A DNA stretch of 64,000 bases from a virus. The notes beneath the pieces were generated by a model. The model was not told the origin of the DNA and did no database searches. It saw only the letters and a list, made by a program, of their open reading frames with translations. The translations under genes were made by a program, and so were the position numbers. The DNA is taken from the IMG/VR virus record IMGVR_UViG_3300016484_000735, positions 14,418 through 78,417 of that record. The stretch is one strand, 5' to 3'. Below, one piece after another: positions 12,330 to 53,108 of the stretch; positions within the stretch are counted from its first letter, which is position 1, and each line of letters starts with the position of its first letter.

Positions 12330-12382
12330 AATACAGCATTAGGTGCTGAATAAAAACGAAGGGACTCATCCGAGTCCTTTTT
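12330..12382 (+). terminator. Conserved 3' element copy A (AATACAGCATTAGGTGCT) plus terminator hairpin
   Basis: 18-nt identity to copies at 27129 (+) and 53108 (-); aagggactc-atcc-gagtccttt then T tract. Confidence 0.75.
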
Positions 12383-12597
12383 GGGCTTTCCGCACACCGG
12401 GCTGATACTCTGTTCAGGCCAAGGAATTCCGCCCCAGGGACCGCTCAGAACGCTCCGCTTCCGACACTCGTAGTGTAAGATCCACCCCGCTTTTGACGGT
12501 CCCTGGCGCCGCCCTCCGGACTCTGTAACAGCTCAAAAAGCCGAACACTCGTCGAAGTTCTGGTGTATAATGATTCATCAACGAACTGGAGATCGAG

Positions 12598-12927
12598 ATG
12601 ACCGAAGCGAACCGTGGTACCGAGATCATGAACCTGTTCCCGGCAGCGTTCTACGCCACGAAGTCGACCTCGATGAACAGCGTCGAGTTCAGCACTGTGG
12701 GCGAGAACGAAGTGAGCTTCACCTGCACGTGCTCGAACACCGGACGTCCGCTGATCGTCACCATCAAGATCAACGTCGATAACTTCGCGATCGCCAAGAT
12801 CCAGAACGGCAAGAACATCCACACCGCAGGCTTCGTGCCGGCTCGTGTGATCACTCAAGAAGTCGTTGAAGACCTGGTGATGGCGATCAGCAATCAGATC
12901 GACGAGATGTTCTTCCTGGAGATCTGA
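12598..12927 (+). CDS. Early hypothetical protein, paralogue 1
   Basis: MTEANRGTEIMNLFPAAFYATKSTSMNSVEF; near-identical N-terminus to next gene. Confidence 0.8.
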   Translation: MTEANRGTEIMNLFPAAFYATKSTSMNSVEFSTVGENEVSFTCTCSNTGRPLIVTIKINVDNFAIAKIQNGKNIHTAGFVPARVITQEVVEDLVMAISNQIDEMFFLEI

Positions 12928-12991
12928 TCAAGAGCCGAACACGCGACGAAGTTCTGGTGTATAATGAACCATGAACGAACTGGAGATCGAG

Positions 12992-13315
12992 ATGACTGAA
13001 CAGAACCGCGGCACTGAGTTCATGAACCTGTTCCCGACCGCGTTCTACTCCACGAAGACGACCTCGATGAACAGCGTCGAGTTCCAAGTCACGAACGAGG
13101 ACAAGGTCACGTTCACCTGCACGTCCTCGCACACCGGACGACCGGTCCTCGTCACGATCGAGTTCGGTAAGAACTTCGCCGTCGTCACCGCCTTCGATGG
13201 CACGAACGCCGATCGTGCAGCACCGGTGTTCGCTCCGGTGATCACGCTCGCCTCGGTCGAAATGCTCGTCGAGAGCATCAGCGACCTGATCGAGAACCTG
13301 TTCTACCGGTTCTGA
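12992..13315 (+). CDS. Early hypothetical protein, paralogue 2
   Basis: MTEQNRGTEFMNLFPTAFYSTKTTSMNSVEF; duplicated promoter/RBS; start set by analogy. Confidence 0.8.
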   Translation: MTEQNRGTEFMNLFPTAFYSTKTTSMNSVEFQVTNEDKVTFTCTSSHTGRPVLVTIEFGKNFAVVTAFDGTNADRAAPVFAPVITLASVEMLVESISDLIENLFYRF

Positions 13316-13696
13316 TCAAGAACCGATCGGGAACTCGAGCCGCATCGTCTCGGTCAAGTTCAACCGAAGGTAAGTGAGATCGATGATCGCCACGATCGCG
13401 TTGTTGTCCGGCAGAGCCAGAACGACCAGCTCGTCCAGCTGAACTCGAGGTTCAGCGGCGATCACAGTCCGGAGCTGCGATTCGATCGTCGACACGGTAT
13501 CCTCGTCCAACGGTTCGAACGCCATCATCGGAATCGTCGTGCCGAAGTCCGGGTTCATCGGACGCTCGCCCTTGATCGTCCAGATCGCGTTCAGCAGATC
13601 TCGCTTCACGGTCTCGATTCCAGAAGTTCCGAACGATCGGTCCTTGCGCTCCAGTTGAGAAGCGGTGCTGAACCCACGATAGATCATCTTAGCCAT
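13316..13696 (-). CDS. gp25: Baseplate wedge subunit gp25-like
   Basis: MAKMIYRGFST...VKRDLLNAIWTIKGERPMNPDFGTTI...IAAEPRVQL = GPW/gp25 family signature. Confidence 0.9.
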   Translation of the reverse strand: MAKMIYRGFSTASQLERKDRSFGTSGIETVKRDLLNAIWTIKGERPMNPDFGTTIPMMAFEPLDEDTVSTIESQLRTVIAAEPRVQLDELVVLALPDNNAIVAIIDLTYLRLNLTETMRLEFPIGS

Positions 13697-13703
13697 TTTA
13701 CCC

Positions 13704-14813
13704 TCACTTCTTCCAATGTGCGCCTCGCGGCGAGGACGAGATTGGTCGCTCCCACGGTTCGTGCTGAGGCACGATCGTCGGTGCAGTAGCACACGCCGCC
13801 TCTGCTGCACTCGGTCCGTTCAAGTGAATCGCACTCCCGGTCGCCAACAGGTTCCCACTCGCCAAGAAGTTCATCGCCGCACCTGAAGTGATGTTCACTC
13901 CGGCACCCGTCACTCCCAACGATCCACAAGCAGTCAGTCGAGCGTCACCACCAGCCAGCAGGTTCAGAGTCGTCCCAGCGCTGATGTTCACCGATCCGCT
14001 CGCCGCCAGGTTCAGATTCCCACCAGCAGCGATCGACACGGACTCAGCAGCGAACAGGTGCACGTGCCCGTCCTTGTCGATCTCGAGGTACGCCTGCCCA
14101 CCAGCCACTGACAAGTAGATCCGTTCGTTCGCATCGTCGAAGATGATCTGATGACCCTCTGCCGTCTTGAACCGCAACCGACTGTTCGCTGGGTTATCCT
14201 GCATCAGGATCGCGTGCCGACCAGGAGTCGTGATGCAGAACGTCTGTGACTCCAACTCGCCAACACCCTTCGTCCCTACCGGCACAGTCCGCGTCTGATA
14301 CCCCTCAGTACTGTTCTTCTCATCCGCGGGTTGTGCTGCCTGTCGTTCGTACGCACCACGCGTCTGAGCGATCGACGAACTCAGATCACCGAACTGTGCC
14401 TTCAGGTTCGAAGCAGCAGGTTCCAGAACCCCACCAGAATCAGTCGTCAGATTCCCAGCACCATCGTTCCGACCCACCGGCAACGACCGGTTCCCGTGCT
14501 CTCGGAACACCGACCCGATGTACACCCGCTGGTTGTAGTCACCGTACAGGAACATCACCAGCACCTGCGCACCGATCTTCGGAATCGCCCAGAACCCGTA
14601 CGACACCGGTCCATCAGACACTCCACCGCCACCACCCGGATAACTGTACGCCTGCCCAGCGAACGGCGACATGTACACCGCCCACGGCAACGTCTCAACA
14701 TCAGAGATCACATCACCATCGATCGCCGGACACCACACGCGCAGACGACCCATCTCCTGTGGATCGCTCGTATCGACCACGATCCCTTCAACAACGAACG
14801 GCGCATCAATCAT
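13704..14813 (-). CDS. gp5: Baseplate central spike, gp5/VgrG-like (OB-fold plus beta-helix, no lysozyme)
   Basis: GIVVDTSDPQEMGRLRVWCP, P.IG..V.V.F..GD, TAEGHQIIFDD repeats. Confidence 0.8.
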   Translation of the reverse strand: MIDAPFVVEGIVVDTSDPQEMGRLRVWCPAIDGDVISDVETLPWAVYMSPFAGQAYSYPGGGGGVSDGPVSYGFWAIPKIGAQVLVMFLYGDYNQRVYIGSVFREHGNRSLPVGRNDGAGNLTTDSGGVLEPAASNLKAQFGDLSSSIAQTRGAYERQAAQPADEKNSTEGYQTRTVPVGTKGVGELESQTFCITTPGRHAILMQDNPANSRLRFKTAEGHQIIFDDANERIYLSVAGGQAYLEIDKDGHVHLFAAESVSIAAGGNLNLAASGSVNISAGTTLNLLAGGDARLTACGSLGVTGAGVNITSGAAMNFLASGNLLATGSAIHLNGPSAAEAACATAPTIVPQHEPWERPISSSPRGAHWKK

Positions 14814-17258: not shown

Positions 17259-17268
17259 CGTTCGTACC

Positions 17269-20148: not shown

Positions 20149-21219
20149 GTGATCAGTACGTCGATCAAGGATCGAGTTCGTGGTCCGATCACGAAGCTCG
20201 CGATGTTCACAGACATCCACTTCGGGGCGCGGAATAACTCTGATCAACACAATCTGGACAATCTGGACTACATCGACTGGTTCATCGAGCGAGTGAAGGA
20301 AGAGAACCCGAGCCACATCGCGTTCCTCGGCGACTTCTTCGAGAACCGGAACGCGATCAATGTTCGGACGTTGAACCACGCGATCACGGCGTGCCGTCGT
20401 TTGAACTCGCTCGGGATCCCGGTGATCTGGGTCGTCGGGAACCACGATCTGTACCATCGAAGCACACGGTCGGTGTTCAGTACGAACATGTTCGATGATC
20501 TCGAGAACTTCATCGTGATCTCGGAGACGACTGAGCTCACGAAGGATTTCCTCGTGTGTCCGTTCCTGTTCAAGGACGAGTACGTCGCTCAGGCTGCCCA
20601 GATCAACGCGCACAAGTACGTGCTTGGTCACTTCGAGTTCAAGGACTTCGTTGTGGCTGGAAGCACTCGGACGCTGGATCACGGCCCTGATGGTGGTGCG
20701 TTCACTGGACCGAAGTACATCTTCTCCGGTCACTTCCACAAGCGCCAGTTCAATCGGAACATCGTGTACATCGGGAACACGTTCCCGACGAACTACGGCG
20801 ATGCTGGTGATGCTGAGCGCGGGATGGCAGTGTTCGACGTTCTGAACGACGATGTGTACTTCCATAACTGGGACGATGCTCCGTTGTTCTTCAAGACGAA
20901 GCTCACTCGAGTGATCAACGGCGAGGTCGACTGGCCTCCACGAGCTCGCGTTCGCTGCGTTCTGGACATGGACATCGGGTACAGCGAAGTGCAGACGCTG
21001 CGTGAAGAGATGATCGACACGTTCAGCCTTCGCGAGTTCTCGGTTGAAGAGGACGTTGCACTCCGGAAGGAGATGCTCAGCGAAGGCCTCGAGCTCGAGC
21101 ATGATCTGGATACGAGCTCGTTGGATGCGACTGTTCGTCAACTGATCACCGAAGGCGTTCAAGCTTCAGCCACGATCGATCCTGGAACCCTGGTGAAACT
21201 GTACGAGGAACTTCGATGA
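20149..21219 (+). CDS. gp47: Recombination nuclease gp47 (Mre11/SbcD)
   Basis: TDIHFG, LGDFF, VGNHD, GHFE, SGHFH metallophosphoesterase motifs. Confidence 0.92.
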   Translation: MISTSIKDRVRGPITKLAMFTDIHFGARNNSDQHNLDNLDYIDWFIERVKEENPSHIAFLGDFFENRNAINVRTLNHAITACRRLNSLGIPVIWVVGNHDLYHRSTRSVFSTNMFDDLENFIVISETTELTKDFLVCPFLFKDEYVAQAAQINAHKYVLGHFEFKDFVVAGSTRTLDHGPDGGAFTGPKYIFSGHFHKRQFNRNIVYIGNTFPTNYGDAGDAERGMAVFDVLNDDVYFHNWDDAPLFFKTKLTRVINGEVDWPPRARVRCVLDMDIGYSEVQTLREEMIDTFSLREFSVEEDVALRKEMLSEGLELEHDLDTSSLDATVRQLITEGVQASATIDPGTLVKLYEELR

Positions 21220-21338
21220 ACTGGGAATTCATGGTCACGGCGATCATCGGCTCAGCCTTGATTGGCGCGCACTTCGGGTCTCTGATCCTCGCCATCGGCA
21301 TCTACTTCTGTCTCCTTGCAATCAACAAATCACAATGA
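21216..21338 (+). CDS. 40-aa hydrophobic membrane peptide missing from ORF track
   Basis: MNWEFMVTAIIGSALIGAHFGSLILAIGIYFCLLAINKSQ; ATGA overlap with gp47 stop. Confidence 0.55.
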   Translation: MNWEFMVTAIIGSALIGAHFGSLILAIGIYFCLLAINKSQ

Positions 21339-21346
21339 GTTCAATC

Positions 21347-22054
21347 CTAGTCTAGGTACTTGATTGTCCAACCTTCGACGCGCGAGATACGCTTCTTCGA
21401 TGTGACCACGCCGTTCTCGGTCTTCAGAGCAGCTCTGAATGCCGTGAGCGGGTACTTCGACTCTGCACACCACGCAGTGAGGTCATCAACGATGAAGACC
21501 TTCCCGGACGATGAGGTTACCTCGTACTTTCGATTCTTCGCTGCCCAGGTCTTTGCCATACTTTCCGGTGAGCGGGTACGGTCTTTCTTTGACCAAGTAG
21601 AGCGCCATTTCTGATGTCGTTCTTCGCTCCACTTCTTACCAAAGTTCGGATTGTTCTCACCGCTGTTCAACTCACTCAACAATGCCTTTGTCTCATCAGA
21701 CATCGACCACCCGTCATCACCACCATGACGAGCATTCATCAGAATACCTCCTTCTGGAAGAATACCAAAGTGCTTCGTCAGAATGCGTTCGGTCGCGAAC
21801 GCTGTCACTTCATCGCCTTCATAGACAGTGATCACCGGGAGAGTCCTGTATCCAAGGCTCTTCATCCCAAGCAACCAGCGATCGATGATCTGACCTGAGT
21901 AAGACGAGAGCTCATCATTCAAGAATGATACAATGCCTAGTGGGCGTTCAGGACGCCCCTTCCCAACGTAAGCCGGTTGATGGTCGAATACTCCGAATGG
22001 ATGCTCGAACTTGCCTGGTTTCCGTGGATCAAGTACAACGTATGTGATGAACAT
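21347..22054 (-). mobile_element. Free-standing GIY-YIG (LEM-3-like) homing endonuclease with NUMOD3 repeats
   Basis: YVVLDPRKPG...YVGKGRPER; SDETKALLSELNSGENNPNFGKKWSEE; antisense insertion between gp47 and gp46; TAAATA at 22076-22081 (-). Confidence 0.75.
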
Positions 22055-22099
22055 CAGAACTCCTGTAGTTTCATCTATTTACAGTAAGGAGATGAAGTT

Positions 22100-23839
22100 A
22101 TGTCATCGTTGCTGCGGTTCAAAACACTTGAACTGAGGAATTTTCTTTCGTTCGGCAATCACCCGTCTGTGATCGAACTCGATGGTCAAGGCACGGTCAC
22201 GATCACTGGTGAGAACATCGATCAAGGAGGTTCGAACGGCGCTGGCAAGACCACGTTGATCAATGCGCTGTGTTACGCGCTGTACAACAAGGCGTTCGAC
22301 AACATCACGCTGCAACGTCTCGTGAACACGACGAACGGATTGAAGAACACCTCGATGGAGGTTCGTCTCACGTTCGACAAGGACGGGTGCGAGTACGAGG
22401 TGTTCCGGTCGCGCGGTGCAGCGTACACGGTCGAGATCAAGCGCGATGGTGAAGACATCACGCCAGGCAAGGGTGCCGTCGAGTGCGATGCGCTCCTCGT
22501 CGACATCATCGGGATCAGCTACGAGTTGTTCACGAAGACGATCATCTTCTCTGGGAACTCGCCAGCGTTCTTGCAGCTCCCGTTGTTCCAGCAACGGAAT
22601 CAGATCGAGGAGCTCTTCAACATCACGATGCTCTCTGAGAAGGCGGCACTGCTGAAGGAGCAGATCAAGACGACTGAGCAGGACATCAAGGTCCAAGAGG
22701 CGGTGTGCAAGCAGCAAGAGGGTGCTCTCGAGCTGCACAAGAAGCACGTGCGCGAAGCGAACGATCGTGTATCTCGCTGGGAGAAACAACGTACTGACCA
22801 GATCGCCGATCTGGAAGAGACGCTGCTGATCATCGGACAGGTTGACTTCGACTCTGAGAAGCTCCTGCACGCTGAACGGGCGAAGCTCAAGGAGGAAGGT
22901 GCGTACCTCGCGGCTGCGCTCTCGCCGAAGAAGAAGGACCTCACGACACTCACGAAGAAGGTGAACGAGCTGCTCGCCGAGCACGAACACCTCTCGGATG
23001 CGAAGTGCCCGTACTGCACGCAGTCGTTCGCTGGTGCTGCCGAGAAGCTCGTGAAGGTTGATGCCGACATCGAATCGCGCGGTGCTCGTGTTCTCGAGCT
23101 CGAAAGCGAGGTCGCTGCTCTTGAGGCGAAGCAGGCGGATCAGAAAGCGCGCCTCCGTGAGGTTGAGGGCGCGATTCAGTATCAAGAGCTTGATGAGCTG
23201 TTGGCTGCTCGTGAGAACGCTCAAGGGATGCGGAACAAGATCGCCGAGCTGAAGGTCGCTGTGAACCCGCACATCGAGGCTCGAGATAAGCTCGCGAACG
23301 AATCGCAGAACGCCGTCGACTACCTGAAGGTTGATGAGCTTCGTAAGAAGCTCGATCATCAACAGTTCCTGCTGAAGCTCCTGACCGACAAGAACTCGTT
23401 CCTCCGTCGCCAGATCATCAACCGCACGATTCCGTTCCTGAACGGTCGATTGAACCACTTCACCAGTACGCTCGGCCTGCCGCACGTCGTGAAGTTCGAT
23501 GCCGACATGAGCTGCACGGTTGCTGAGTTCGGTCGTGAGCTCGACTTCGGGAACCTCTCGGCTGGTGAGAAGAAGCGAGTGAACACCGCGATGGCTCTGG
23601 CATTCCGTGATGTTCTGCATCACCTGCACGCGAAGACGAACCTCCTGGTGATCGACGAACTCGACGGTGCTCTGGATCAACAAGGTATCGACAGCATCGT
23701 TCGGATTCTGAAGGACAAGAGCCGTGACGAGGAACTCTCGGTGTTCGTGATCAGCCATCACCCGAGCATCGTGGGTCGCCTCGACAAGAATGTCACGGTT
23801 CGGAAGGAGAACGGGTTCAGCCAGTTCATCGACGAGTAA
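22100..23839 (+). CDS. gp46: Recombination ATPase gp46 (Rad50/SbcC)
   Basis: NFLSFGN, GSNGAGKTT, CPYC zinc hook, LSAGEK signature, IDELDG Walker B. Confidence 0.95.
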   Translation: MSSLLRFKTLELRNFLSFGNHPSVIELDGQGTVTITGENIDQGGSNGAGKTTLINALCYALYNKAFDNITLQRLVNTTNGLKNTSMEVRLTFDKDGCEYEVFRSRGAAYTVEIKRDGEDITPGKGAVECDALLVDIIGISYELFTKTIIFSGNSPAFLQLPLFQQRNQIEELFNITMLSEKAALLKEQIKTTEQDIKVQEAVCKQQEGALELHKKHVREANDRVSRWEKQRTDQIADLEETLLIIGQVDFDSEKLLHAERAKLKEEGAYLAAALSPKKKDLTTLTKKVNELLAEHEHLSDAKCPYCTQSFAGAAEKLVKVDADIESRGARVLELESEVAALEAKQADQKARLREVEGAIQYQELDELLAARENAQGMRNKIAELKVAVNPHIEARDKLANESQNAVDYLKVDELRKKLDHQQFLLKLLTDKNSFLRRQIINRTIPFLNGRLNHFTSTLGLPHVVKFDADMSCTVAEFGRELDFGNLSAGEKKRVNTAMALAFRDVLHHLHAKTNLLVIDELDGALDQQGIDSIVRILKDKSRDEELSVFVISHHPSIVGRLDKNVTVRKENGFSQFIDE

Positions 23840-23878
23840 CGACAGTGGATAAATACGGGATCTGCACAAGGATCCCGT

Positions 23879-24370
23879 ATGTCTAAGCACCTGATCACCC
23901 TCGGACGTTCTCTCCGTGAATCGCACCTCGCCTCCACCTGGCGCGCTCGTCTCGCTGAAGAAGAGATCGAGAACAAGTCGCCTGAATCGGTGTGGGCAGA
24001 GAACAAGGACAACGCCGAGACGTTCATCTCGAACACTGTGTACTACGTGAAGGAGCTTGACGGAGGCGAGAAGTACGAGATCACGACCGTTGACGGCTCT
24101 GAACGGAAGCAGTTCGGCACCGTGTCTCGTGCAGACCTTGACAAGGGGTTCACTCCGATCCGTGCGAACGATGCTGCTGATGCTGAAGGATACAAGCAGT
24201 ACCGGAAGGTCGACGAAGTTCAAGCGTTCAAGTACGACGGCGAGACTGTAAAGGTGAACGGCGTTCTGATCTCGAGCGGTGACTATCTGATCAAGATGCC
24301 GAAGGACGACCAGTTCGTGTACGAAGTGAAGAAGGCGAAGAACTTCGATCTGGCGTACACGAAGAAGTGA
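23879..24370 (+). CDS. Late hypothetical protein (PGDYG-like C-terminus)
   Basis: TAAATA 23850-23855; SGDYLI and F...Y end. Confidence 0.7.
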   Translation: MSKHLITLGRSLRESHLASTWRARLAEEEIENKSPESVWAENKDNAETFISNTVYYVKELDGGEKYEITTVDGSERKQFGTVSRADLDKGFTPIRANDAADAEGYKQYRKVDEVQAFKYDGETVKVNGVLISSGDYLIKMPKDDQFVYEVKKAKNFDLAYTKK

Positions 24371-24394
24371 TGTTCTGAGGGATCTAAATACGGG

Positions 24395-24823
24395 ATGGAC
24401 CAATTCCCGTACCCACCACCGAATCGCACCCAAGAGCCAGTGAAGCTCAAGGGCAAGGATGTCAAAAGCACTCGTCTCTCGTTGCTTGAGCAGCAGGGGT
24501 ACAAGTGCACGTTGTGTCAAGAGCTGTGCTCCGAAGACGAAGCCGTTCTTGACCACTGCCACAAGGGCGGACACGTTCGATCTGTTCTTCATCGCGGCTG
24601 TAATGCCGCTGAAGGGAAGATCATGAACGCGATGCGTCGATACGGTATCACGAATCCGCTCACGTTCCTTGAGCAGATGATCGAGTACCAGAAGACGCAC
24701 TCGACGAATCAGACCGGGCTGATTCATCCGACACACAAGACCCCGGAAGAGAAGGCCGCCGCCGTGAAGGCGCGAGCCAAGAAGAAACGCGAAGCCGCAA
24801 AGAAGGCTAAGCAGCAAGCTTAA
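24395..24823 (+). CDS. gp49: Recombination endonuclease VII (gp49-like)
   Basis: EQQGYKCTLC, VLDHCHKGGHVRSVLHRGCNAAEGKI. Confidence 0.88.
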   Translation: MDQFPYPPPNRTQEPVKLKGKDVKSTRLSLLEQQGYKCTLCQELCSEDEAVLDHCHKGGHVRSVLHRGCNAAEGKIMNAMRRYGITNPLTFLEQMIEYQKTHSTNQTGLIHPTHKTPEEKAAAVKARAKKKREAAKKAKQQA

Positions 24824-25634: not shown

Positions 25635-25892
25635 ATGAGTGCGAAGCAAGCGAAGCGGTTGCGACAAGCAGCTCGAGGCCTCGTCGTGTCCCTTGACCAG
25701 GCTGGCGTTCAGATCTCCGAGCGGAAGCAGAAGGTGATCGATCACGGTGCCGAGTTCCTGAAGAGCGTGCATCCGAAGGATCGTGTTGATGCTCCAGCCG
25801 AAGGTTCCCTTCAGATCGTGAACGAGGGGAACTCGATGCGCGGTATCATTCGAGCAATGAAGAAAGAACAGAAGCTGCTGAAGTCGCGATGA
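25635..25892 (+). CDS. Hypothetical basic protein
   Basis: Operonic ORF. Confidence 0.65.
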   Translation: MSAKQAKRLRQAARGLVVSLDQAGVQISERKQKVIDHGAEFLKSVHPKDRVDAPAEGSLQIVNEGNSMRGIIRAMKKEQKLLKSR

Positions 25893-27130
25893 CTGAACTG
25901 TACCGAGTGGTGGGTGGAGCTGTCCATCACTCTGATCCTCTGCACGTCGGGAACTTCTTCCCGAACAAGCTCCGTCATCATCGTGGCGTGATGCAGCGTC
26001 GCCAAGACCTGATTCTGTACCTCGCGAACCTGCACGCTGCCGCTGTTGAGACCGGGATGCCGTTGGGCATGATTCACATCCCGATGCGGCTGATGTCGCT
26101 GCGAGCTTGGTGTCAAGACTACCGAGTGATCCTCGATGCGTTCTTCAACGTCGAGCAGCTCGGCTTCAATCTCGGTGATGGTGACTTCGAGATCAGCACC
26201 CTGACGCCGAAGAACGTCACGAACGGGAAGCGAGCAGCATCGAACGCTGCGAAGGAGCTCGTGTACGAGGTGCCAGAACGCCCTGAGAACGGCAGCATCT
26301 CGAAGGTGTACATTCAGCAGCAGAACCGTGAAGCGATCCTGACTCGCCTCACGAACACCTCGCGCCTCGATCTGAAGGCGCCGGTTGAGTGGTTGCTGAA
26401 GCAGAGCGAGGTGAACTTCCACTTCGAGCGAGCTGGGAAGCTTCAACAGCGAGACACGAGCATCTGGCCGGTCCGTGGCGTCGAGACGTGGCCGTCGTGG
26501 CTTCGTGAGATGCTGTTCGGCGAGGGTGTCGACATCGACTCGGCGTACACTCAGTACCTCGTTGGTCGTCTGCGTGATGCATACAAAGGGCGTGAGACGC
26601 TGCTCGAGACGATGTTCCCAGACATTCTTCGGTCGTTGACCGACAAGAAGGCGTGGCGCATCGAACTCTGTGAAGGCGTGCTCGGGCTCGAACCGACCGA
26701 GGAGAACATCGGCGTCGTGAAGCGGCTGTGCATGAGTCTGGCGAACGGGTCCCGGATCAGTCCAGCGATCCTGCTTGGGAACCGATCGTTCAGCGTGACC
26801 GCTGACATCGTGATTCAGAGCACTGAGGACATCCGTCCTGAGAACTTGATCCGAATCGGTGAACGATTGCAGTCGATTGCGAAGCAGTACGTGAACGCTC
26901 GGAAGATGATCTGCACGTCGTCGATGCGAACGCGGGCGACCCGCGAGAATCAGAAGCGGGTGTTCAGCAGTTACTTCGAATGGGAACGTGAAGCACGGTA
27001 CGCGATCTGGGAACAGTGCGACCGACATGGCATCATGGTGCACGACGGCATCGACGGGATCCCAACGGAGTACCTCGATCGGATGCCACAGATCATGGAG
27101 ACGCTGAACATCCGACTCACACGCGGATAA
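25889..27130 (+). CDS. Family-A-related (TV-Pol-like) polymerase domain protein
   Basis: Motif A LR..L....VDIDSAY, motif B K.L..SLANG, motif C MVHDG in correct order. Confidence 0.55.
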   Translation: MTELYRVVGGAVHHSDPLHVGNFFPNKLRHHRGVMQRRQDLILYLANLHAAAVETGMPLGMIHIPMRLMSLRAWCQDYRVILDAFFNVEQLGFNLGDGDFEISTLTPKNVTNGKRAASNAAKELVYEVPERPENGSISKVYIQQQNREAILTRLTNTSRLDLKAPVEWLLKQSEVNFHFERAGKLQQRDTSIWPVRGVETWPSWLREMLFGEGVDIDSAYTQYLVGRLRDAYKGRETLLETMFPDILRSLTDKKAWRIELCEGVLGLEPTEENIGVVKRLCMSLANGSRISPAILLGNRSFSVTADIVIQSTEDIRPENLIRIGERLQSIAKQYVNARKMICTSSMRTRATRENQKRVFSSYFEWEREARYAIWEQCDRHGIMVHDGIDGIPTEYLDRMPQIMETLNIRLTRG

Positions 27131-27178
27131 TACAGCATTAGGTGCTAGATAAAATCGCGGGGACCAATTGGTCCCCGC
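27129..27178 (+). terminator. Conserved 3' element copy B plus palindromic hairpin at convergent junction
   Basis: AATACAGCATTAGGTGCTAGATAAAATC then gcggggacc-aatt-ggtccccgc. Confidence 0.75.
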
Positions 27179-27184
27179 TGTCGT

Positions 27185-27835
27185 TTAGAACTCGTTCTTC
27201 TCGATCGTGTGTGCTAGATCAAGCAGATCAATTCGCATCGCGTCCCACTCGTACGGTCGCATCGGTTGACCGCGGAAATGCACGACGATGTACCCTTGAA
27301 TGTTGCCGAACCCTTGTGGGAACGGCACACGGCACGAAGCCACGAACTTGTTCTTCAAGTCTGGCCACACTCGGCTCAGGCCACCAGCCATGAACGGGTC
27401 GCAGATCTGTTCGCCTTGAACGAGCGAAATCATCTGGGTGTTGTTCGACTCATCACCCTTGATGTACATCGGGAGCGCTCCAGAACCGCCGTTCAACCGC
27501 TTCATGATCTCATCGCGAAGCTCATCGTCGTTGAACGCCCGGTACACCGGAGTCCGGGTGTTCTTTCGGTGCTCAAGTTTCAGGACCGTGAGGTACGCGG
27601 CCGTTGACTGGTACTTCTTCATGAAGGCCAACGCCGCCAGCTTCGACCTGTCGCCGATCGCTGTAAAAGGCTTCTCCTTCTTAGCGAACACGTACTCGGT
27701 GATCGACGCCTGGCTTGTGTACGTGAGGTACGAAAGAACGCAGGTGCCCGAAAGCAGCGCGAACAGAAGAACACGCTTCAACGACAACTTCACGAGGATC
27801 TTGGCGATCGCATCAATGATTCTATCCATGTACAC
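27185..27835 (-). CDS. Single-TM protein with periplasmic GAF-like domain, T4 holin T-like
   Basis: 216 aa, N-terminal TM, SCRVPF...IQGYIVVHF; TAAATA at 27852-27857 (-). Confidence 0.45.
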   Translation of the reverse strand: MYMDRIIDAIAKILVKLSLKRVLLFALLSGTCVLSYLTYTSQASITEYVFAKKEKPFTAIGDRSKLAALAFMKKYQSTAAYLTVLKLEHRKNTRTPVYRAFNDDELRDEIMKRLNGGSGALPMYIKGDESNNTQMISLVQGEQICDPFMAGGLSRVWPDLKNKFVASCRVPFPQGFGNIQGYIVVHFRGQPMRPYEWDAMRIDLLDLAHTIEKNEF

Positions 27836-28863: not shown

Positions 28864-28881
28864 GTGGTTCTCCGTATGTGT

Positions 28882-28905
28882 GTAAATACCTAACGATGTA
28901 TTTAC
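28882..28905. promoter_or_regulatory. Divergent pair of late promoters (gtaaatac-N8-gtatttac)
   Basis: TAAATA + at 28883-28888 (tape measure) and - at 28899-28904 (gp26). Confidence 0.75.
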
Positions 28906-28939
28906 GGGTTCCTTCAGAGCCCAAAAAATTGGACCTAGG

Positions 28940-31900
28940 ATGGCGCTCCCTAACGATCCAGCTACAGAACTGACGCTCAAGAAGGTACTTGATGCGATCA
29001 ACAAGGCCTTCCCAGCCTCCGCAGGAGTTCAGGGTCGTGGCGGGGCAACCGTGAGGACTTCTGCCGATCGAGCCGAAGAGGCGAATCGGCAGAAGGCAAA
29101 GCGGACGATGGTCGCTACGACGAAGGCCGTCGATGCGCTCGGTACATCTGCGAATCACGCAGCTGGCTCGCTGAAAGAACTTCAAGCTCGGGCAAAGAAC
29201 CTGACAGGCCAGTTCAAGAAGCTTGGCGATGAGACCGACGAAGCATCTGGATCGGTGAAGAATCTCGGGACGAAGAGCGACACCGCAGCTGGTAAGCTCG
29301 GAGATCTCTCAAAGAAGGCTGGCGCCGCCACTGACGGGCTCGGCGAGTTCCGCTCCGGCATCGCCGATACGCTGAAGGCTCTCGCTGCTGCTCAGAAGAC
29401 CCTCGACAAGCTCGACTTCTCTGGGGCGACCGACGAGTTCAGGGCTGCCTTGAAGCAGCTTGACTTCTCGAAGATCCCAGAGGATATCGTTGCACTTCTG
29501 AAGAAGCTCGACTTCACAGAAGTTCCAGAGTCGATTCAAGACGAACTGAAGAAGGTGCTCTCGGCGTATTCGTTCGATCTTGAGTTCGTACCGAAGCAGA
29601 TCGAAGAGGCTCTTCGCAAGGCGCTTGAGAAGCTCAAGGTTCCTGAGTCTGAGCAGGAGAAGATCGACAGCAAGAACATCCTTGGCGTGAACGTCGCGGT
29701 CGCCGGATTCGCGAAACTCATCGAGGGCTCTGTCACTACCCGCTTCAACCGGTTCAATAAGATCCTTCGTGGAACAACGAATGCGCTGAACGGTCTGCGG
29801 CGTGCTGCCCAGAGTGGCGCGGTGCCTGTCCCAGGAATCAGTACGCCAGTCTCACCGGTACATACCAGCGCGCCGACGACATCTGTTGCGCCGGTTCAAG
29901 CCACAGCACCACAACCGGTCGATACTACTCCGGACACAACACCTGCTACGCCGAAGAACAAAGACAAGAAGCCGAAGCAGCCGAAGAAGGAAGAAAAGCC
30001 GAAGACATTTGCCGAAGGGCTGAACAAGGCCGTAGACAAGCGTCTTGCTCATCTTGATGATGCAGCGAAAGCAGAAGCGATCAAGAAAATTGGTCGCCTC
30101 GGGGCTGTGGCAGGCGCAGTGTCGCTTGCCTTCGGCGGCATTCTTCGTGCAAGCGCACGGATCCTCGATGAGATGAAGGGTCTTGCCGCTGCCGGGTACG
30201 GGCTGACCGATTCGTATACAAGCTTGAGCTGGTATGCTGCGCAGAACGGCATGGCGCTCAGCGAGTACACAGACATGATGAAGGAGAGTATGGCCGTCGT
30301 GTCACGCTCGTCTTCATTCGCCGATTTCCAAGCGAAGCTCAAGGTCGGCACTGATGCTCTCGCGAAATTCGGCCAGTTCGGTCCCGGCGCGGCCAAGGCC
30401 GTCGGCGAGATCATGACGACCTCGACACAAGCCGGCATCTCACAAGATCGGATGAATGAGGCCGTGCTCGCGCAGACGAAGGCGTTCGGCGAACTGCAGA
30501 AGACGACCGGCATGACTGTGGAGGAGTTCTCGAAGCTCACCGCCGAGATCATGAGCGATACGCAGGTCCGCACCGACATGCTGTCGTTGTCGCAGACCGA
30601 ACGCATTCGACTTCAGGCACAGCTCACCCAGCAGGGTCTGTATGCTCGCTCGCTGAACTTGAGCACCGCCGAGGTGAACAAGTACACGCAAGCGATCCTC
30701 GAGCAGCGTAAGTCCACGGTGAAGAGCCGGTTCAAGCAGGCAGGCGTCCTTCAACAGATGGCTGGCATGGCCGGCATGGCCCCTGAACAAATCGATGAGC
30801 TCCGTAAGCTCACGATGAAGAAGAACAAGGATCCAGCAGAGCAGAAGCGATACGACGAACTGCTTGGCGAGCTCGGCGCTCGTCAAAGCGAGATGCAACG
30901 GAACTCTGAGGATAACGAGGCATACGGCGGCAGTAACCAAGTAGACATCGCACGCGAGAAGATGGCTGAGGCCGGACTCTCGACAGCGATGGAGGCCGCA
31001 GCAGCTATTCGCTTGGCCAAGGAATCTGGATCGGTCACGAAGGCCGACGGCAGCTCAGTGAACGCCGACATGGGGAAGCAGCTCAGTGAAGGGCAGCAGA
31101 CCCTGCTGAAGGCGACGACTGTCCTTGAAGGGGCAATGAAGAACACGCTGACGCAGATCGCTACTTCGGCCATCGCTGGTATCGCTGCAGCCGCCGCATC
31201 GTACTTCGCCGCAGCCCCGATCATCGGAACGATCATCGGGAAGATCATCGGGCGGCACTACGGCGGCACGCCGCCGGCTGGTCCAAGTGCCGGCTCAGGC
31301 GCTGCTGGCCAGCCGAAGCCGAACACTCCGACTGGTGGTCCGAAGCCTCAAGCTCCTCTGCCTGGTGCTCAGACGCCAGGCGCTGGCGGATCGATTCAAC
31401 ACCAGCCGACAGGTCAGTACGGTCAGAAGACGACGACCCCGGTGAATGCGACGCCGGCCGGCACGAAGCCTGGTTCGGTGATCCCAACGTCTCAACAACC
31501 GATTCAGACGACTGGGACTGGCGCGTACTCGCAGAAGTTTACACCGCTCCAGACAACACCGATTCAAGCGACGCCAGCGAACACAACCGTTGCTACACAA
31601 GCCGCCCCAGTACCTGCAACGCCGGCTGTGAAGCCTGAGGCGCCAAAGGGTAAGTTCGGGAAGTATCTTGGCTCTCTCGGCCAGATCAGCAAGCTCGGTA
31701 TGATCACCGGTGCGGTCACCGCCGGTGCCTCTCTGGTTGGAGCAGTCCAAGACGGGAATGCTGCGGCTGAACAAGCTAAGGCCACAGGCGGTGATGTCGG
31801 CGCCGCCAAGGGTAGTGCCATTGGACAAGGTCTCGGCGGCGCGGTCGGCGCTGTTGGCGGAGTCGTTGCGGGTTCGGCGGCAGGCGCCTGGGTCGGCGGT

Positions 31901-35139: not shown

Positions 35140-35195
35140 GAAGTTCGCGGATTCCTGACTGTAAATACGTCGTCTCAAACACAGAAGGAGTCCGA

Positions 35196-39518: not shown

Positions 39519-39566
39519 GCGAATCCCTGCGAGTCATAAATACCTGATCGAACAATCAGGTACGTT

Positions 39567-48917: not shown

Positions 48918-50470
48918 TCTCATTCAAGCAATACCTTCAAGAGCGCGCTATGAACCAGCGCGAGTTCGCACGCACACTCTCGAATCATGGTGACACGGCG
49001 AAGGTCGGGTTCGAGTTCGAGATGGCGATCCCGAGTGATTCGGAGCTGTATAGAGGGCTTAACCTCGAGGCTGCGGCCCCAGATGTGTTCATGCTTCGAG
49101 ACCTTGATCACATCGATGAGGTCTCGGAGTACTTCGATGCTAATCGACGGAAGCTTCAAGACATCGATTCGGACTACGGGGAATGGGTGAACGATGCTCG
49201 CGAGAAGTACGTGTATGACAATCGGGATGATGATCACGAAGATCTAGATGCTCATGAAGAAGAGCTTCGTGACGAATGGAACGACCGGTATCGTCACAAG
49301 TACGACTTCAAAGACTGGGTGAGCTCTGAGTTCGCGTCTGTGTACACGTTCTTGCAGGATTACGGCCTCGACCCACGCTTCGGTTGGGACGACGATACAG
49401 GCAATGACTACTCGACAGTGTTCGTCGCAGCTGCTGAAGAGAGCGACGAAGATCATCACGAGGAAGTAGTGTTCAAGAAGATCGCCGCGGAGCTCACTAA
49501 GTTCATGAATGAACCTGTGAAGATCCCGAGGTTCGATTCTGTAGACAAGTCGAAAGAGTGGATGATCGTGCCAGATGGTTCGATCGAGATCTCGGGCGCC
49601 AAGAGTGGTATGACGGCAGAAGTGGTATCGCCGCCGCACGACCTGAAGACAGCTCTCACGAAGCTGAACACGATGTTCAAGTGGATGTCGGCAAACGACT
49701 GCGAGACGAACAGCACGACCGGTCTACACATCAACATCTCTGTGCCGAACATCAAGGACTGCGACCCGGTGAAGCTCGTGTTGTTCATGGGCGATCGGCA
49801 CGTGCTGAAGCAGTTCGAACGTCTTGGGAACACGTACACACGGTCGCAAATCACCGCAATCGAAAAAGAAATTCAAGCCAGCGGCACGCTGAAGCGCACA
49901 GACAAGGCCCAAGACCTTATTGACGCCGCGTACTCTGGTCTGAATCAAGCGAAGTACGCGTCGGTGAACCTGAAGAAGCTTCAAGACGGGTACCTTGAGT
50001 TCCGAGTCGCTGGGAATACCGACTACCACAAGAAGTTCGACCTCGTTCGAGACACTGTCCTGCGATTCGTGACCGCTCTCACAATCGCCTGTGATCGTGA
50101 TGCTGAACGTGACCTGTACGTGAAGAAGCTTGTGCGGCTGTTCGGCGAGAACACCACGAAGATCGTTGATGCTGAAGAACCGTCGCTCTTCGATGTCTTG
50201 GAAAACGGCACCGCGACCTCGATGGCTGAACGCTGGCAGGCGTACAACGAGACCCTGAAGTCTGGTGGAACGCTGGACGACGAAGCGATCGACGACCTTC
50301 GCCGTAAGATCATCCCTCGGATCATGATCGAGCTGAACAACAACGACAAGCGGCCTAGCTCGAAGCTTCGTGCCGAAATGAAACTGTTCATGAAGCGGGC
50401 GAAGAAGAGCATGCAAGATCTGGTAGTTGATGACTGGAAGAACGAATTCCGAGAGTTCTTCCAGATCTAA
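48914..50470 (+). CDS. Putative amidoligase (COOH-NH2 ligase type 2)
   Basis: KVGFEFE, PDGSI, EVVSP, TTGLHINIS, KY.SVN, YLEFRVAG. Confidence 0.78.
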   Translation: MISFKQYLQERAMNQREFARTLSNHGDTAKVGFEFEMAIPSDSELYRGLNLEAAAPDVFMLRDLDHIDEVSEYFDANRRKLQDIDSDYGEWVNDAREKYVYDNRDDDHEDLDAHEEELRDEWNDRYRHKYDFKDWVSSEFASVYTFLQDYGLDPRFGWDDDTGNDYSTVFVAAAEESDEDHHEEVVFKKIAAELTKFMNEPVKIPRFDSVDKSKEWMIVPDGSIEISGAKSGMTAEVVSPPHDLKTALTKLNTMFKWMSANDCETNSTTGLHINISVPNIKDCDPVKLVLFMGDRHVLKQFERLGNTYTRSQITAIEKEIQASGTLKRTDKAQDLIDAAYSGLNQAKYASVNLKKLQDGYLEFRVAGNTDYHKKFDLVRDTVLRFVTALTIACDRDAERDLYVKKLVRLFGENTTKIVDAEEPSLFDVLENGTATSMAERWQAYNETLKSGGTLDDEAIDDLRRKIIPRIMIELNNNDKRPSSKLRAEMKLFMKRAKKSMQDLVVDDWKNEFREFFQI

Positions 50471-50566
50471 AGTGGGGTGAGAACAGAGGTCAAAAACCAG
50501 CACTTCCATAAATACATCCTGAACAACCAGAGCAGCACCGCTGTCACCCCTTAGGAGAAAACTCAA

Positions 50567-52405
50567 ATGGCTACACTCATCTCTCCAGGCGTTAGCGTTA
50601 CCGTCGAAGACCAGAGCTTCTTCTTCCCGGTTTCGGCGACGACTGTCCCACTGTTCTTCGTCGCTACCCGTTCGGGCAAGACACAGACTGATGGCGTTAC
50701 CGCTGCTGCTGGTACGCTCGAGTCTGGTGTCGTCCGTACCGTGACTTCGCAGACTCAGTCCCTGCAGCTGTACGGTGTTCCGTACTTCGTGAACGACGTG
50801 TCTGGCCAAGAGTTCCACGGCGACGCCCGGAACGAATATGGCCTGCTGGCTCTGAACAGCTTCCTCGGCATCGGGAACCGTGCATACGTCGTCCGCGCTG
50901 ACGTGAACCTGAACGACACTCCAGAGACGTTCATCTCCCTCGGCACCCCGACCGCTGGCACCGCCTCGTTCGTTGGTATCGGCAACGGCACGATCTCCGG
51001 CATCAGCGCCGCTTCGTCGCAGGTGAAGCCGCAGACGATCGTTGTGTCGTTCACCTCGAACACGAACTTCAGCGTCACCGGCTCCGTCACCGGCCACATC
51101 GGCTCGGGCGTGGTTGGCACCGCATTCAACTCGACTGTCGTGTCGTTCAACATCGCTGCTGGCTCGGTGAACTTCGTGAACGGTGACAAGTTCACGTTCG
51201 CTCTGTCGTACGCGGCTGTTCCGACCGTCGGCAACACCGGCAACGGTACCGTCGTTGGTCTGAAGCCGGACACCCTCGCTGTTCCAGAAGCGATCACGAT
51301 CACGTTCGTCTCGCCGACGAACTACACCGTGTCGAACCTGTTCGGTCCAGCTGGTTCCGGTGTTGTTGGCTCGCCATTCGATGACAACCGTCTGAACTTC
51401 ACGATCGTTGCTGGCTCGACTCCGTTCGTGGCTGGTGACGAGTTCACCGTGACCGCTGCGACCGTCACGATCTCCTCACCGCTTGGTGCATCGGACGCAC
51501 AGCGTCGCGTCGCGATCGTGACCGCTCTGCAAGCTGCGATCAACAGCAACGTTGATGTTCGTTCGGAACTGTACGAGTACAACCTGATCCTGTGCCCAGG
51601 GTACCACGAAGTCGTTGACGAACTCGTCACGCTGTCGAACGATGTGTACGGCGAAGCATTCGTGATCGCTGACACTCCGTGCAACCTGAACCCAGACCAA
51701 GTCGCTCAGTGGGGCCTGACCTCCGCTCGCCAGTCGAAGTCGGAAGTTGCGTACTACTACCCATGGGCAATGGTTTCGAACCTCGATGGTCGGAACGTTC
51801 TGGCTGCTCCGTCGGGTGTCGCCCTCCGTACGATCGCGTACAGCGACGACCAAGCATACGTGTGGGAAGCACCGGCTGGTGTCTCTCGTGGTCTGACATT
51901 CGGTCCGACGCAAGTCGGTTACGTCACTGGCGATCTGGGTACCGCAACGACATTCGTCGAAGCGAACCTGAACGCTGGTCAGCGCGACAACCTGTACGAG
52001 TACTACAAGAACATCAACCCGATCGTGTTCTTCCCGGGTCGTGGCATCCTGATCTGGGGTCAGAAGACTTCGTCTCCGGCGGCTTCGGCAATGGACCGCA
52101 TCAACGTCGTCCGTCTGGTGATGTACCTCCGTCGTACGCTTCGCAAGGGTGCGATGCCGTTCGTGTTCGAACCGAACGACCAGATCACTCGCGACAACCT
52201 GAAGGCTGCCGCTGATGCAGTGATGAACGACATCATGGTGAAGCGTGGTCTGTCCGACTTCGCATCGTACTGCGATGACACGAACAACACTGCGGCTCGC
52301 ATCGATGCGAACGAGCTGTGGCTCGACATCGCGATCAAGCCAACGCGTGCGGCAGAATTCATCTACATCCCGATCCGCGTGGTGGCAACGTCCGCTTCGA
52401 TCTGA
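50567..52405 (+). CDS. gp18: Tail sheath protein gp18
   Basis: LISPGVSVTVED, YYYPW, APAG.SRG, RDNLY...INPI, WGQKT, DRINVVRL, FVFEPND. Confidence 0.97.
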   Translation: MATLISPGVSVTVEDQSFFFPVSATTVPLFFVATRSGKTQTDGVTAAAGTLESGVVRTVTSQTQSLQLYGVPYFVNDVSGQEFHGDARNEYGLLALNSFLGIGNRAYVVRADVNLNDTPETFISLGTPTAGTASFVGIGNGTISGISAASSQVKPQTIVVSFTSNTNFSVTGSVTGHIGSGVVGTAFNSTVVSFNIAAGSVNFVNGDKFTFALSYAAVPTVGNTGNGTVVGLKPDTLAVPEAITITFVSPTNYTVSNLFGPAGSGVVGSPFDDNRLNFTIVAGSTPFVAGDEFTVTAATVTISSPLGASDAQRRVAIVTALQAAINSNVDVRSELYEYNLILCPGYHEVVDELVTLSNDVYGEAFVIADTPCNLNPDQVAQWGLTSARQSKSEVAYYYPWAMVSNLDGRNVLAAPSGVALRTIAYSDDQAYVWEAPAGVSRGLTFGPTQVGYVTGDLGTATTFVEANLNAGQRDNLYEYYKNINPIVFFPGRGILIWGQKTSSPAASAMDRINVVRLVMYLRRTLRKGAMPFVFEPNDQITRDNLKAAADAVMNDIMVKRGLSDFASYCDDTNNTAARIDANELWLDIAIKPTRAAEFIYIPIRVVATSASI

Positions 52406-52424
52406 TCTATCAGATGAGCTGAAC

Positions 52425-52448
52425 AAAAGGACCTTCGGGTCCTTTTTT
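52425..52448 (+). terminator. C(UUCG)G terminator
   Basis: aaaaggacc-ttcg-ggtcctttttt. Confidence 0.9.
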
Positions 52449-52483
52449 CGCATAAGTATAGAATGTTCAAGAAGAGCCTATCG

Positions 52484-53053
52484 ATGATCACGTTCAAGCA
52501 GTTCCTCGCAGAGTCCGAGCGTAAGATCTACGCAAAGAAGCTTGGCGATGTTGGCGCATTCACACCGGCGAAGGCTGAGGACAGTTACACGGTCGGTAAT
52601 GTCACGTTCAGTGCGAAGGACGGTCTCGGCTCAGTGCCGCACAATCAAGAGGTGTGGTACATGGGGTTCGTCGCCACGATGAAACCAAGCATGTTCTTGA
52701 AGATCGCGCTCGACGATGAAGGCTCACAAGTACCGACGTCGAAGGAGCTCGCGAAGCTCGTTCAAGACGGGTACGCCGTTGGGATTCCGTTCCTCGAGAT
52801 CGAGTTCGATCCGGATGGGAACGACCTCCCGAAGATCAAGGGTCACGAGGGTCGTGGTCGGATGCGCATGGTGCAGGATCTGAATGGTGATGAACCGATT
52901 CCAGTGCACTTCTTCCTGCGCGGTGGTCTGCGAGCTCGGAACGTCACTCGTGAGATGATCGACGAGGTGAAGCAAGGTGTGTACGCCGAGAAGTCATCTC
53001 GATTGGTGAAGAACCCTGTTGAACGGATCTGGCTCGACTACAGCGAGATGTAA
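52484..53053 (+). CDS. Hypothetical protein with capsid-targeting-like N-terminus; possible ParB/Srx fold
   Basis: MITFKQFLAE; IPFL...IKGHEGRGRM. Confidence 0.65.
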   Translation: MITFKQFLAESERKIYAKKLGDVGAFTPAKAEDSYTVGNVTFSAKDGLGSVPHNQEVWYMGFVATMKPSMFLKIALDDEGSQVPTSKELAKLVQDGYAVGIPFLEIEFDPDGNDLPKIKGHEGRGRMRMVQDLNGDEPIPVHFFLRGGLRARNVTREMIDEVKQGVYAEKSSRLVKNPVERIWLDYSEM

Positions 53054-53108
53054 ACAAAAACGGGAGCCATTGGCTCCCGTGATTTTATCTAGCACCTAAT
53101 GCTGTATT
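53053..53108 (-). terminator. Conserved 3' element copy C plus terminator
   Basis: Reverse complement AATACAGCATTAGGTGCTAGATAAAATC (53108-53081), acgggagcc-aat-ggctcccgt, T tract. Confidence 0.75.

Follow-up and report, generated by a model that had tools for sequence, protein, structure and literature searches.

A strand-specific tag at early gene ends of uncultured T4-like jumbo phages and its inverted copy in front of a YqeY operon

The window analysed here is a stretch of 64,000 nucleotides (64 kb) within a 135-kb record of an uncultured phage, and was originally predicted to carry three dispersed copies of a conserved element at gene 3′ ends (copies A, B and C, Table 1). These copies exist: a 26-nt pattern matches the window only at 12330-12355 (+), 27129-27154 (+) and 53108-53083 (-), and is absent from shuffled sequences (0/100). 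Copies B and C are identical over 28 nt, and copy A shares the first 18 nt and 24/26 positions overall. All three lie in sense orientation at the ends of transcription units, 0-14 nt past the stop codon of a same-strand gene, and the gene map places B and C at convergent junctions. The conserved stretch itself is longer than first noted, since it covers 31 nt in copy B and in two copies outside the window, where it runs through ..ATAAAATCGCG, and it has a C-rich/CGC box upstream that is semi-conserved over the element family. In total, the 135-kb record holds five copies. The unit of copy A and those of the two copies outside the window have upstream promoters of the early type, and units for recombination and nucleotide metabolism end at B and C. 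The name 'polymerase-like', given earlier to the gene preceding copy B, finds no support in Pfam or PHROGs.

Table 1. Features at the three copies of the element in the window
Feature	Position	Strand	Remarks
Pilin-like early gene upstream of copy A	11915..12316	+	Pfam N_methyl, E 1.3e-07
C-rich/CGC box upstream of copy A	12314..12329	+	TAACACCACCGCGACG; the TAA within is the gene's stop codon
Copy A of the tag	12330..12356	+	core AATACAGCATTAGGTGCTGAATAAAAA; 13 nt past stop of pilin-like gene
Terminator 3′ of copy A	12362..12382	+	hairpin (12362-12377) and T-run
413-aa gene, no assigned family	25889..27130	+	last in a unit with gp47-like, gp46-like and endonuclease VII genes
Copy B of the tag, 31 nt	27129..27159	+	overlaps TAA stop of 413-aa gene
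Bidirectional terminator at copy B	27157..27188	.	hairpin (27157-27178) and T-run; convergent junction
Bidirectional terminator at copy C	53050..53080	.	hairpin (53060-53080) and T-run; convergent junction with tail-sheath gene cluster
Copy C of the tag, 31 nt	53078..53108	-	14 nt past stop of dNMP-kinase-like gene
dNMP/thymidylate-kinase-like gene	53123..53665	-	ends nucleotide-modification operon

The predicted GC hairpin is present behind all three copies and has a T-run; at B and C it is called as a terminator on both strands; in copy B the A-rich end of the tag is at the same time the T-run of the opposite-strand terminator. The stems differ in sequence while their pairing is kept: at the site orthologous to C, two of the 12 pairs show compensatory changes. 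These GC hairpins are ordinary intrinsic (rho-independent) terminators, partly bidirectional. The proposed link between element and termination is loose: roughly 70% of copies have an adjacent hairpin, and about 13 of 43 do not. About 15 hairpin-plus-T-run terminators in the record are credible by our own judgement, and about 12 of these lack the element. The small AGCA-TTAGG-TGCT hairpin proposed within the element is not supported by the comparison. Its three inner pairs never vary and all departures consist of unpaired cells; in a covariation test for a nut/boxB-like or otherwise structured RNA, four of the five pairs depart only in this way. The hairpin cannot form in the G011 lineage, in two of three G006 copies or in L164. 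Because several lineages are without it, it is not a conserved feature, and no conserved intramolecular structure was found in the element.

Related contigs of uncultured T4-like jumbo phages contain about 40 further distinct copies, frequently behind the same genes. Gene ends account for approximately 38 distinct copies, spread over at least 20 positions; every one of them is in sense orientation, with a same-strand stop codon usually 0-30 nt upstream. From this comparison the element emerges as a strand-specific tag of ~28-45 nt with a common layout: the C-rich/CGC box, a block AATA-Y-AGCA-Y-TAG, a 5-nt middle that varies between lineages, and a block RRATAAG... The two blocks are invariant between lineages whose proteins are 42-60% identical, and the sole substitution seen within the AGCA block is that of L231. 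The same gene-end positions are retained in phages of 55-75% protein identity, with invariant core blocks and diverged flanks. The original view of an undescribed conserved motif, sequence-specific well beyond the needs of a terminator, is thus borne out by its retention at orthologous gene ends. Copies have also been gained or lost between relatives, with a decayed copy at record position 109.9 kb and none after the 413-aa gene in L169. A clean insertion or deletion at record position 101.3 kb was considered and rejected: the loci in question are orthologues of the copy before the gp32 gene.

The window has no Rfam match at the gathering threshold, and the element and two leader loci have none at E<=1. 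GenBank phages gave only two 18-base matches (E=6), which we take as chance, as we do the single match in a scan of GTDB genomes. Some 85 of the 105 matches to an exact 17-mer in IMG/VR are unrelated AT-rich repeats within phage coding sequences. The closest isolate, Ralstonia phage RsoM2USA (portal 51% identical), possesses a YqeY gene, but the element is absent from it at <=3 mismatches and its YqeY leader is not repeated.

Several other readings of the tag were rejected. Stop codons in three frames (TAG..TGA/TAG/TAA..TAA) are not its purpose, as the frame-1 stop is missing in L162/163 and L164 and the upstream genes have their own stops. Against a coding C-terminal extension or a tmRNA-like tag, copies are in different frames with variable spacing, and an ARAGORN scan of the entire 135-kb record detects neither tRNA nor tmRNA genes. 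If the element were an SP6/T7-like promoter for its own strand, it would run directly into a terminator or a convergent gene, and the TTAGGTG likeness is lost in other lineages. A CsrA-type GGA site is contradicted by the loop, which is AGGU, and by the second GGA, missing in all five copies of the record. Finally, away from the copies themselves, the record offers only <=10 nt of complementarity for an antisense target.

New in this analysis is that the element also occurs inverted at one conserved locus, behind an early promoter and ahead of an operon comprising a small ORF, YqeY and a gene of ~490 aa. The locus is orthologous among the phages: a guanylate-kinase/NTP-transferase cluster precedes it, and the small ORF, YqeY or the ~490-aa gene follows. 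Eight lineage variants carry such a copy (L008, L125, L126, L187-190, L191, L225/233, L231 and L232). In seven of them it begins 3-17 nt past a sigma70-like -10 box, L125 being without an evident upstream promoter; in all eight it stops before the Shine-Dalgarno sequence (SD). A same-direction gene start follows every inverted copy at 13-130 nt. A further inverted copy, in L134, lies past a gene and upstream of a promoter, outside any leader. The small ORF belongs to no Pfam or PHROGs family, its Atlas neighbours are nameless, and its AlphaFold model is of low confidence (pLDDT 60). A relative of this ORF is present in another phage group, without the element. The 135-kb record itself has neither an inverted copy nor a YqeY gene and is only ~43% complete; the partner of copies A, B and C is therefore inferred from the relatives. 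Inverted copies in a leader are better explained by an RNA partner, or by a directional DNA signal, than by an accessory role in termination.

Lineage-specific substitutions, including those in the 5-nt middle, are common to gene-end and inverted copies, and such shared variants were found in five lineages. In G011, a single 131-kb contig, three gene-end copies and one inverted copy have the same core; two of the gene-end copies match the inverted one over ~33 nt, including a private CTTCA middle, and the third over ~24 nt. Variant-specific scans of IMG/VR for gene-end partners of the L225 and L231 inverted copies gave none. The presence of the same tag after early genes and, inverted, before one operon suggests an undescribed regulatory link.

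We tentatively propose that the gene-end tag acts as RNA by pairing over 28-45 nt with the 5′ leader of the YqeY operon. The uniform orientation and placement of the gene-end copies, the leader position of the inverted ones, the substitutions that both share, the early character of the tagged units and the lack of a conserved intramolecular structure or an Rfam family all favour this reading. The tag would be transcribed as the last unstructured segment of many early mRNAs, between stop codon and terminator, and would base-pair in trans with an exactly complementary stretch that opens the leader of this conserved early operon. Both partner regions lie within predicted transcription units, the gene-end copies from stop to terminator and the inverted copies from -10 box to SD (7/8 variants), and transcription of both strands is presumed. 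Complementarity is perfect over 28-35 nt and extends to ~45 nt; RNAduplex energies of -45 to -94 kcal/mol are inflated by weak pairing of the flanks. Contiguous pairing of the core continues into the C-rich box, whose complement is the G-rich leader beside the SD. If formed in the cell, the duplex would end 4-27 nt ahead of the ribosome-binding site and, being so close, could alter translation or RNase III/E processing of the operon, and possibly of the tagged mRNAs, in one direction or the other. Operon output would thereby be coupled to bulk early transcription. Somewhat more speculatively, RNA-RNA pairing might read out the summed level of early transcripts, with at least 10 unrelated tagged mRNAs facing one operon leader, and a protein of the operon may bind the tag and close a feedback loop. 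We know of no precedent for one operon regulated by at least 10 tags, and this counts against the proposal.

Gene-end and inverted partners do co-vary, as pairing predicts, but this is also expected under the rival explanations. Several observations speak against pairing. In one lineage the core of the gene-end copy (L156) differs from that of the inverted copy (L187), and both differences (n=2) are non-wobble mismatches. In addition, the L134 inverted copy is placed upstream of a promoter and outside a leader, and the 135-kb record is without the presumed partner. Moreover, a varying middle between invariant blocks is closer to what a protein reading the sequence directly would impose than to the mark of complementarity alone.

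Such a protein is the basis of a reading broadly that of the original prediction, to which we give a rather low probability: the element would be the site of a sequence-specific protein that reads it in the mRNA 3′ UTR or in DNA and controls termination or read-through or 3′-end stability, or acts as a polar roadblock, with the inverted leader copy as an autoregulatory operator or decoy. Besides the constancy of the blocks in distant lineages, the position of most copies just before terminators agrees with it. Furthermore, the inverted copy overlaps the promoter from +1 to +35, a classic operator position, and the adjacent genes include a YqeY (GatB-tail) domain, elsewhere an RNA-binding fold. 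On the other hand, an RNA-binding protein could not read the tag as well as its complement, whereas a binder of double-stranded DNA leaves the single orientation of the ~38 gene-end copies unexplained. The proposed hairpin is not conserved, ~30% of copies lack a terminator, and convergent junctions have no nearby promoter to regulate. A candidate DNA-binding protein was not found, and the model of the small ORF is of low confidence.

Similarly unlikely in our estimate is that the reverse complement of the element constitutes a new phage-specific promoter class, directed antisense into early genes and sense into the YqeY operon. Firing at gene ends would then shut early genes off, cause collisions or prime R-loops, and the adjacent stem-loop would immediately precede the promoter, an arrangement documented for the PeSL cassettes of T4-like phages (PMC4122927). 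Like T7/SP6 promoters and the MotA-dependent middle promoters of T4, the element is an asymmetric 25-30-nt motif that is identical within a genome, as is typical of phage-specific promoters, and co-varies between lineages. Its two blocks with a fixed 5-nt spacer form a directional signal; the reverse strand reads TGC-T(G/A)TA(T/A)T followed by GC-rich GCGCG, with T-15, G-14, T-12 and T-10 invariant, the L231 substitution in the AGCA block hits the unspecified -13 position, and the inverted copies all face a gene start within 130 nt. However, the most critical melting bases for sigma70 are the least conserved (-11 is G in ~30/43 copies, -7 is not T in 8/43), so that the reverse strand does not conform to an extended -10 promoter (TGnTATAAT, with A-11 and T-7 conserved and a gene downstream). 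Unlike in known phage-specific promoters, most copies point antisense into genes, the reverse strand of gene-end copies facing the 3′ end of the gene, and no gene of the 135-kb record has one of the five copies as its promoter. The start expected from the motif would leave a leader of only ~13 nt in L008 and L187. The reverse strand also contains TAATGCTGTA, which fits 9/10 positions of the MotA-box consensus. A T4 middle promoter would have this box near -30, a -10 TAnnnT 11-13 bp downstream, and MotA and AsiA genes in the genome, but a -10 is missing at this distance, and in L008 and L187 only 21-23 nt remain to the ATG. A MotA domain search over 540 kb of relatives gave no match, but neither did its control, which makes this negative uninformative. 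No single-subunit or other extra RNA polymerase and no extra sigma factor was identified.

Very improbable, finally, is a homology patch without sequence-specific function, its uniformity owed to gene conversion and its dispersal to recombination, as with PeSLs, which are mobile and shuffle genes: uniformity within genomes, ~25 extra nt of promoter-like flank common to the two copies outside the window, gain and loss among relatives and the flipped L134 copy would fit, but positions and core blocks persist while flanks diverge, orientation is strict, and inverted repeats of 30-45 bp would cost inversions under very active recombination unless selected.

The closest known systems include PeSLs and PmSLs, which combine terminator and promoter in one cassette in T4-type phages (Arbiol 2010, PMC2839356; Comeau 2014, PMC4122927). 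Like the element, they are short, conserved intergenic modules dispersed beside stem-loops in T4-like genomes, uniform within a genome, different between lineages and tied to gene gain and loss. In a PeSL, however, the stem-loop leads directly into the conserved part, a sigma70-type early promoter with an SD and the start of the next gene behind it. The element instead stands ahead of the stem-loop, on the strand of the gene that it follows, with no recognisable promoter-like site on this strand at A, B or C, and an inverted counterpart of it lies in a leader. The 135-kb record does contain many true early promoter cassettes of the PeSL type, and their consensus differs from the element. Lambda nut (boxA and boxB) likewise lies just past a gene and before a terminator with a CGC-rich box upstream, and the window lineage even offers a 15-nt hairpin (5 bp and a 5-nt loop). 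Unlike nut, however, this hairpin is not conserved across lineages, the copies stand at unit ends and not behind promoters, and convergent junctions offer no downstream target for read-through.

Phage antisense RNAs with several targets include the c4 RNA of P1/P7, which acts with ant, and the CI RNA of P4 with seqA/seqC. As in the pairing proposed here, short complementary repeats in transcribed non-coding DNA control translation or termination of a downstream operon, but there a single small RNA acts on two targets close together in the same operon of a temperate phage, in contrast to at least 10 dispersed mRNA 3′ ends and one leader in a lytic T4-like jumbo phage. Bacteria have 3′UTR-derived small RNAs and 3′UTR-5′UTR mRNA pairing, exemplified by CpxQ and icaR. 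As would hold for the tag, these have a single-stranded seed just upstream of their own terminator, with the target beside a ribosome-binding site. We know of no case in which many unrelated mRNAs bear the same seed. UTR-derived ncRNA candidates have been reported from phages (PMC10914365).

To our knowledge, what has been described of gene regulation in T4-like jumbo phages concerns promoters and terminators almost exclusively. The element is neither: it is a conserved, strictly oriented non-coding signal across an uncultured clade. That many gene ends pair with one leader is a testable hypothesis for post-transcriptional or antisense timing in lytic phages, and the tag would then represent a genome-wide mRNA tagging system. 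If the reverse complement instead proved to be a promoter, a new promoter class would emerge that serves to transcribe early genes antisense. Either outcome would add an extra layer to phage gene timing and provide a compact orthogonal regulatory part.

The 26-nt pattern of the element matches the window at copies A, B and C only, with no match in 100 shuffles, and its 14-nt core finds the same three sites even when up to two mismatches are allowed. The original prediction had placed three copies here and described their similarity, and both points hold: B and C are identical over 28 nt, and A agrees over the first 18 nt and at 24 of 26 positions. According to our gene calls, each copy lies 0–14 nt past a same-strand stop codon, and B and C are located at convergent junctions, as proposed. 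The predicted GC hairpin is likewise found, together with a T-run, within a few bases 3′ of each copy. The terminators after B and C scored on both strands; for the opposite-strand terminator the T-run is supplied there by the A-rich 3′ end of the element. The unit ending at copy B contains gp47-like (Metallophos), gp46-like (SMC_N) and endonuclease VII genes; the 413-aa gene before copy B has no Pfam or PHROGs family.

When 43 distinct copies were aligned, the anatomy of the element became clear, i.e. a block AATA-Y-AGCA-Y-TAG, a middle of 5 nt varying by lineage (GTGCT, TTGCT, TTGCC/TTGGC/TAGGC or CTTCA) and a block RRATAAG..., with a semi-conserved C-rich/CGC box 5–25 nt upstream. The small hairpin claimed to be conserved within the element does not withstand this comparison: its three inner pairs are invariant, every departure leaves unpaired positions, and whole lineages are unable to form the stem. 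The downstream GC hairpins, said to covary, are genuine and show compensatory changes at the orthologous site of copy C. About 13 of the 43 copies have no downstream hairpin and instead a convergent stop codon, gene start or promoter directly 3′. In one post-tag terminator (contig L136) the 5′ arm is tandemly duplicated (gggacccaat twice), which suggests slippage within the hairpin.

The source record (IMG/VR; 135,176 bp, 57.6% GC, about 43% complete) has genes for a T4-type portal (Pfam E 2e-90) as well as gp32, gp46/47-like proteins, endonuclease VII, a T4 baseplate protein and a tail sheath. Among isolates, the Ralstonia jumbo phage RsoM2USA is closest; the two portals are 51% identical. 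Two sigma70-like early promoter types recur before small genes in the intergenic regions. About 30 small early genes each have their own promoter module of one of these types, and the modules are a PeSL-like cassette array (stem-loop plus early promoter) typical of T4-type hyperplastic regions. The motif (C/G)ATAAATA(C/G), which matches the T4 late-promoter type, recurs upstream of structural genes; in relatives it often lies 45–65 nt beyond tag and hairpin. Another short motif recurs directly 3′ of terminator stems preceding late promoters (see table).

In the record, about 15 hairpin-plus-T-run sites were judged credible terminators, some 12 of them without the element, which is present in five copies in total. 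The two copies outside the window both have AATACAGCATTAGGTGCTGAATAAAATCGCG, and neither is followed by a simple terminator. One adjoins an early promoter; the other separates gp32 from a kinase gene that is closed by a terminator of its own. At this pre-gp32 copy the separate terminator is upstream, and on the 3′ side there is a long imperfect hairpin; its loop resembles a degenerate early promoter and is homologous to the promoter that follows the fifth copy.

Locations of the element copies and accompanying features
Feature	Location	Strand	Remark
Copy A	window 12330-12356	+
Copy B	window 27129-27159	+
Copy C	window 53078-53108	-
gp47-like, gp46-like and endonuclease VII genes of the unit ending at copy B	window 20149-24823
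Small early genes with promoter modules	window 2474-13000; also many intergenic regions elsewhere in the record
Early promoter module types			GTTACAA..GTGTACAAGTTC..GTTATAGTA, or GTTCTGGTGTAYAATG; sigma70-like
Late motif sites	window 28864-28940, 35140-35195, 39519-39566, 50471-50566, 55902-56072, others
TTTCGGGC(G/A)TYC sites	L052, L054, L127, L137, L139, L179; record 98601-98650, 109920-109940
Region of the pre-gp32 copy	L004:1400-1700 (record ~98600-98900)
Decayed remnant	L113:11899-11917 (record 109899-109917)		outside window; ..TTCTGATTCAAGAA before terminator
Duplicated terminator arm	L136:173-222
Small-ORF relatives	L227:3001-3210; L229:3001-3207

About 40 further distinct copies were obtained from related uncultured phage contigs by scanning IMG/VR and JGI metagenomes for exact patterns and by look-ups at orthologous gene ends. 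The accession prefixes suggest that soil or rhizosphere metagenomes are among the source samples. It should be considered that exact-match searches inflate the apparent invariance; the fair sample is the unbiased orthologous sites. These include the positions after the 413-aa gene, after a dNMP-kinase-like gene and in the kinase/gp32 interval. At a fourth site the record retains only the decayed remnant, which exemplifies element loss because the copy is intact there in six related contigs. At orthologous sites the first 18 nt of the element are usually identical, and neighbouring coding DNA is 58–69% identical. The core identity of the relatives' copies to the record is 54–89% overall, since the record has its own 3′ block. 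RsoM2USA has no copy, Rfam gave no match, and GenBank phages yielded just two 18-base matches (E=6), taken as chance. An exact 17-mer match at L007, L012, L021, L032, L041 and about 80 other loci was rejected as a chance hit within AT-rich repeats of phage coding sequences, which read ..NTALGA.. in one frame and have no relation to the element.

With few exceptions, which are upside down, the copies lie in sense orientation behind a gene. The conserved inverted locus lies downstream of a guanylate-kinase/NTP-transferase cluster and precedes a small ORF (65–87 aa), a YqeY-like gene (Pfam E as low as 2e-17) and a ~490-aa gene; the element is inverted there in eight lineage variants (L008, L125, L126, L187-190, L191, L225/233, L231 and L232). 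Even where the first gene of the operon differs (YqeY in L008, a 461-aa gene in L126), the element is still at the operon 5′ end. Its start lies 3–17 nt past a sigma70-like −10 box in seven variants, the promoter being called by the tool in L191 only and otherwise read from its resemblance to early promoters of the clade; in L125 the upstream sequence shows no evident promoter. In every variant the element stops 4–27 nt short of the SD. This anti-tag would thus form the leader's 5′ end. The 383-kb contig JAWVHC010000046.1 (GCA_040384225.1), read around the YqeY locus, has an inverted copy with a private ..GCTACGTAAGG.. variant. In other phage groups, relatives of the small ORF are found without YqeY; the element is absent upstream of the one in L227, and in L229 a model scan, inspected only cursorily, gave no convincing match.

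Lineage-specific changes are common to gene-end and inverted copies. This is most evident in the 131-kb contig G011, where a core with a private middle and 3′ block is common to the inverted copy and three gene-end copies, and two of the gene-end copies agree with the inverted one over ~33 nt. Predicted intermolecular duplexes range from −45 to −94 kcal/mol, figures inflated by weak flank pairing, and the predicted contiguous duplex reaches into the C-rich box, opposite a G-rich leader beside the SD.

Judging from sequence, the 3′ tags may pair in trans with the operon leader; we rate this reading highest, as plausible though short of probable. It would account for the strict opposite orientations of tags and anti-tags, for the placement of both classes inside transcription units, and for the length, lack of structure and concerted change of the element. 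Against it, the inverted copy is absent from this partial record, block-wise invariance hints at protein read-out, and a further inverted copy in contig L134, which follows a small gene and immediately precedes an early promoter, does not fit. That the reverse strand of the element is instead a promoter appears unlikely. Such a promoter would explain directionality, the two blocks, the striking TGC-T.T register and the stem-loop-then-promoter layout, as in PeSLs; however, −11 and −7, the most important positions for sigma70, are the least conserved bases, the copies in the record drive no gene, and no extra RNA polymerase or sigma factor came to light. A generic protein site, closest to the original prediction, is equally doubtful, as the occurrence of both orientations is not easily explained. 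Pure recombination homology is highly improbable, since it leaves positional and block conservation unexplained. Some of the probability falls outside these four readings.

The closest described systems are the PeSL cassettes of T4-type phages, antisense RNAs with several targets, as in P1 and P4, and 3′UTR-derived sRNAs. By the features tested, the element belongs to none of these classes. We rate it as matching no described repeat and as kin of the known phage regulatory repeats.
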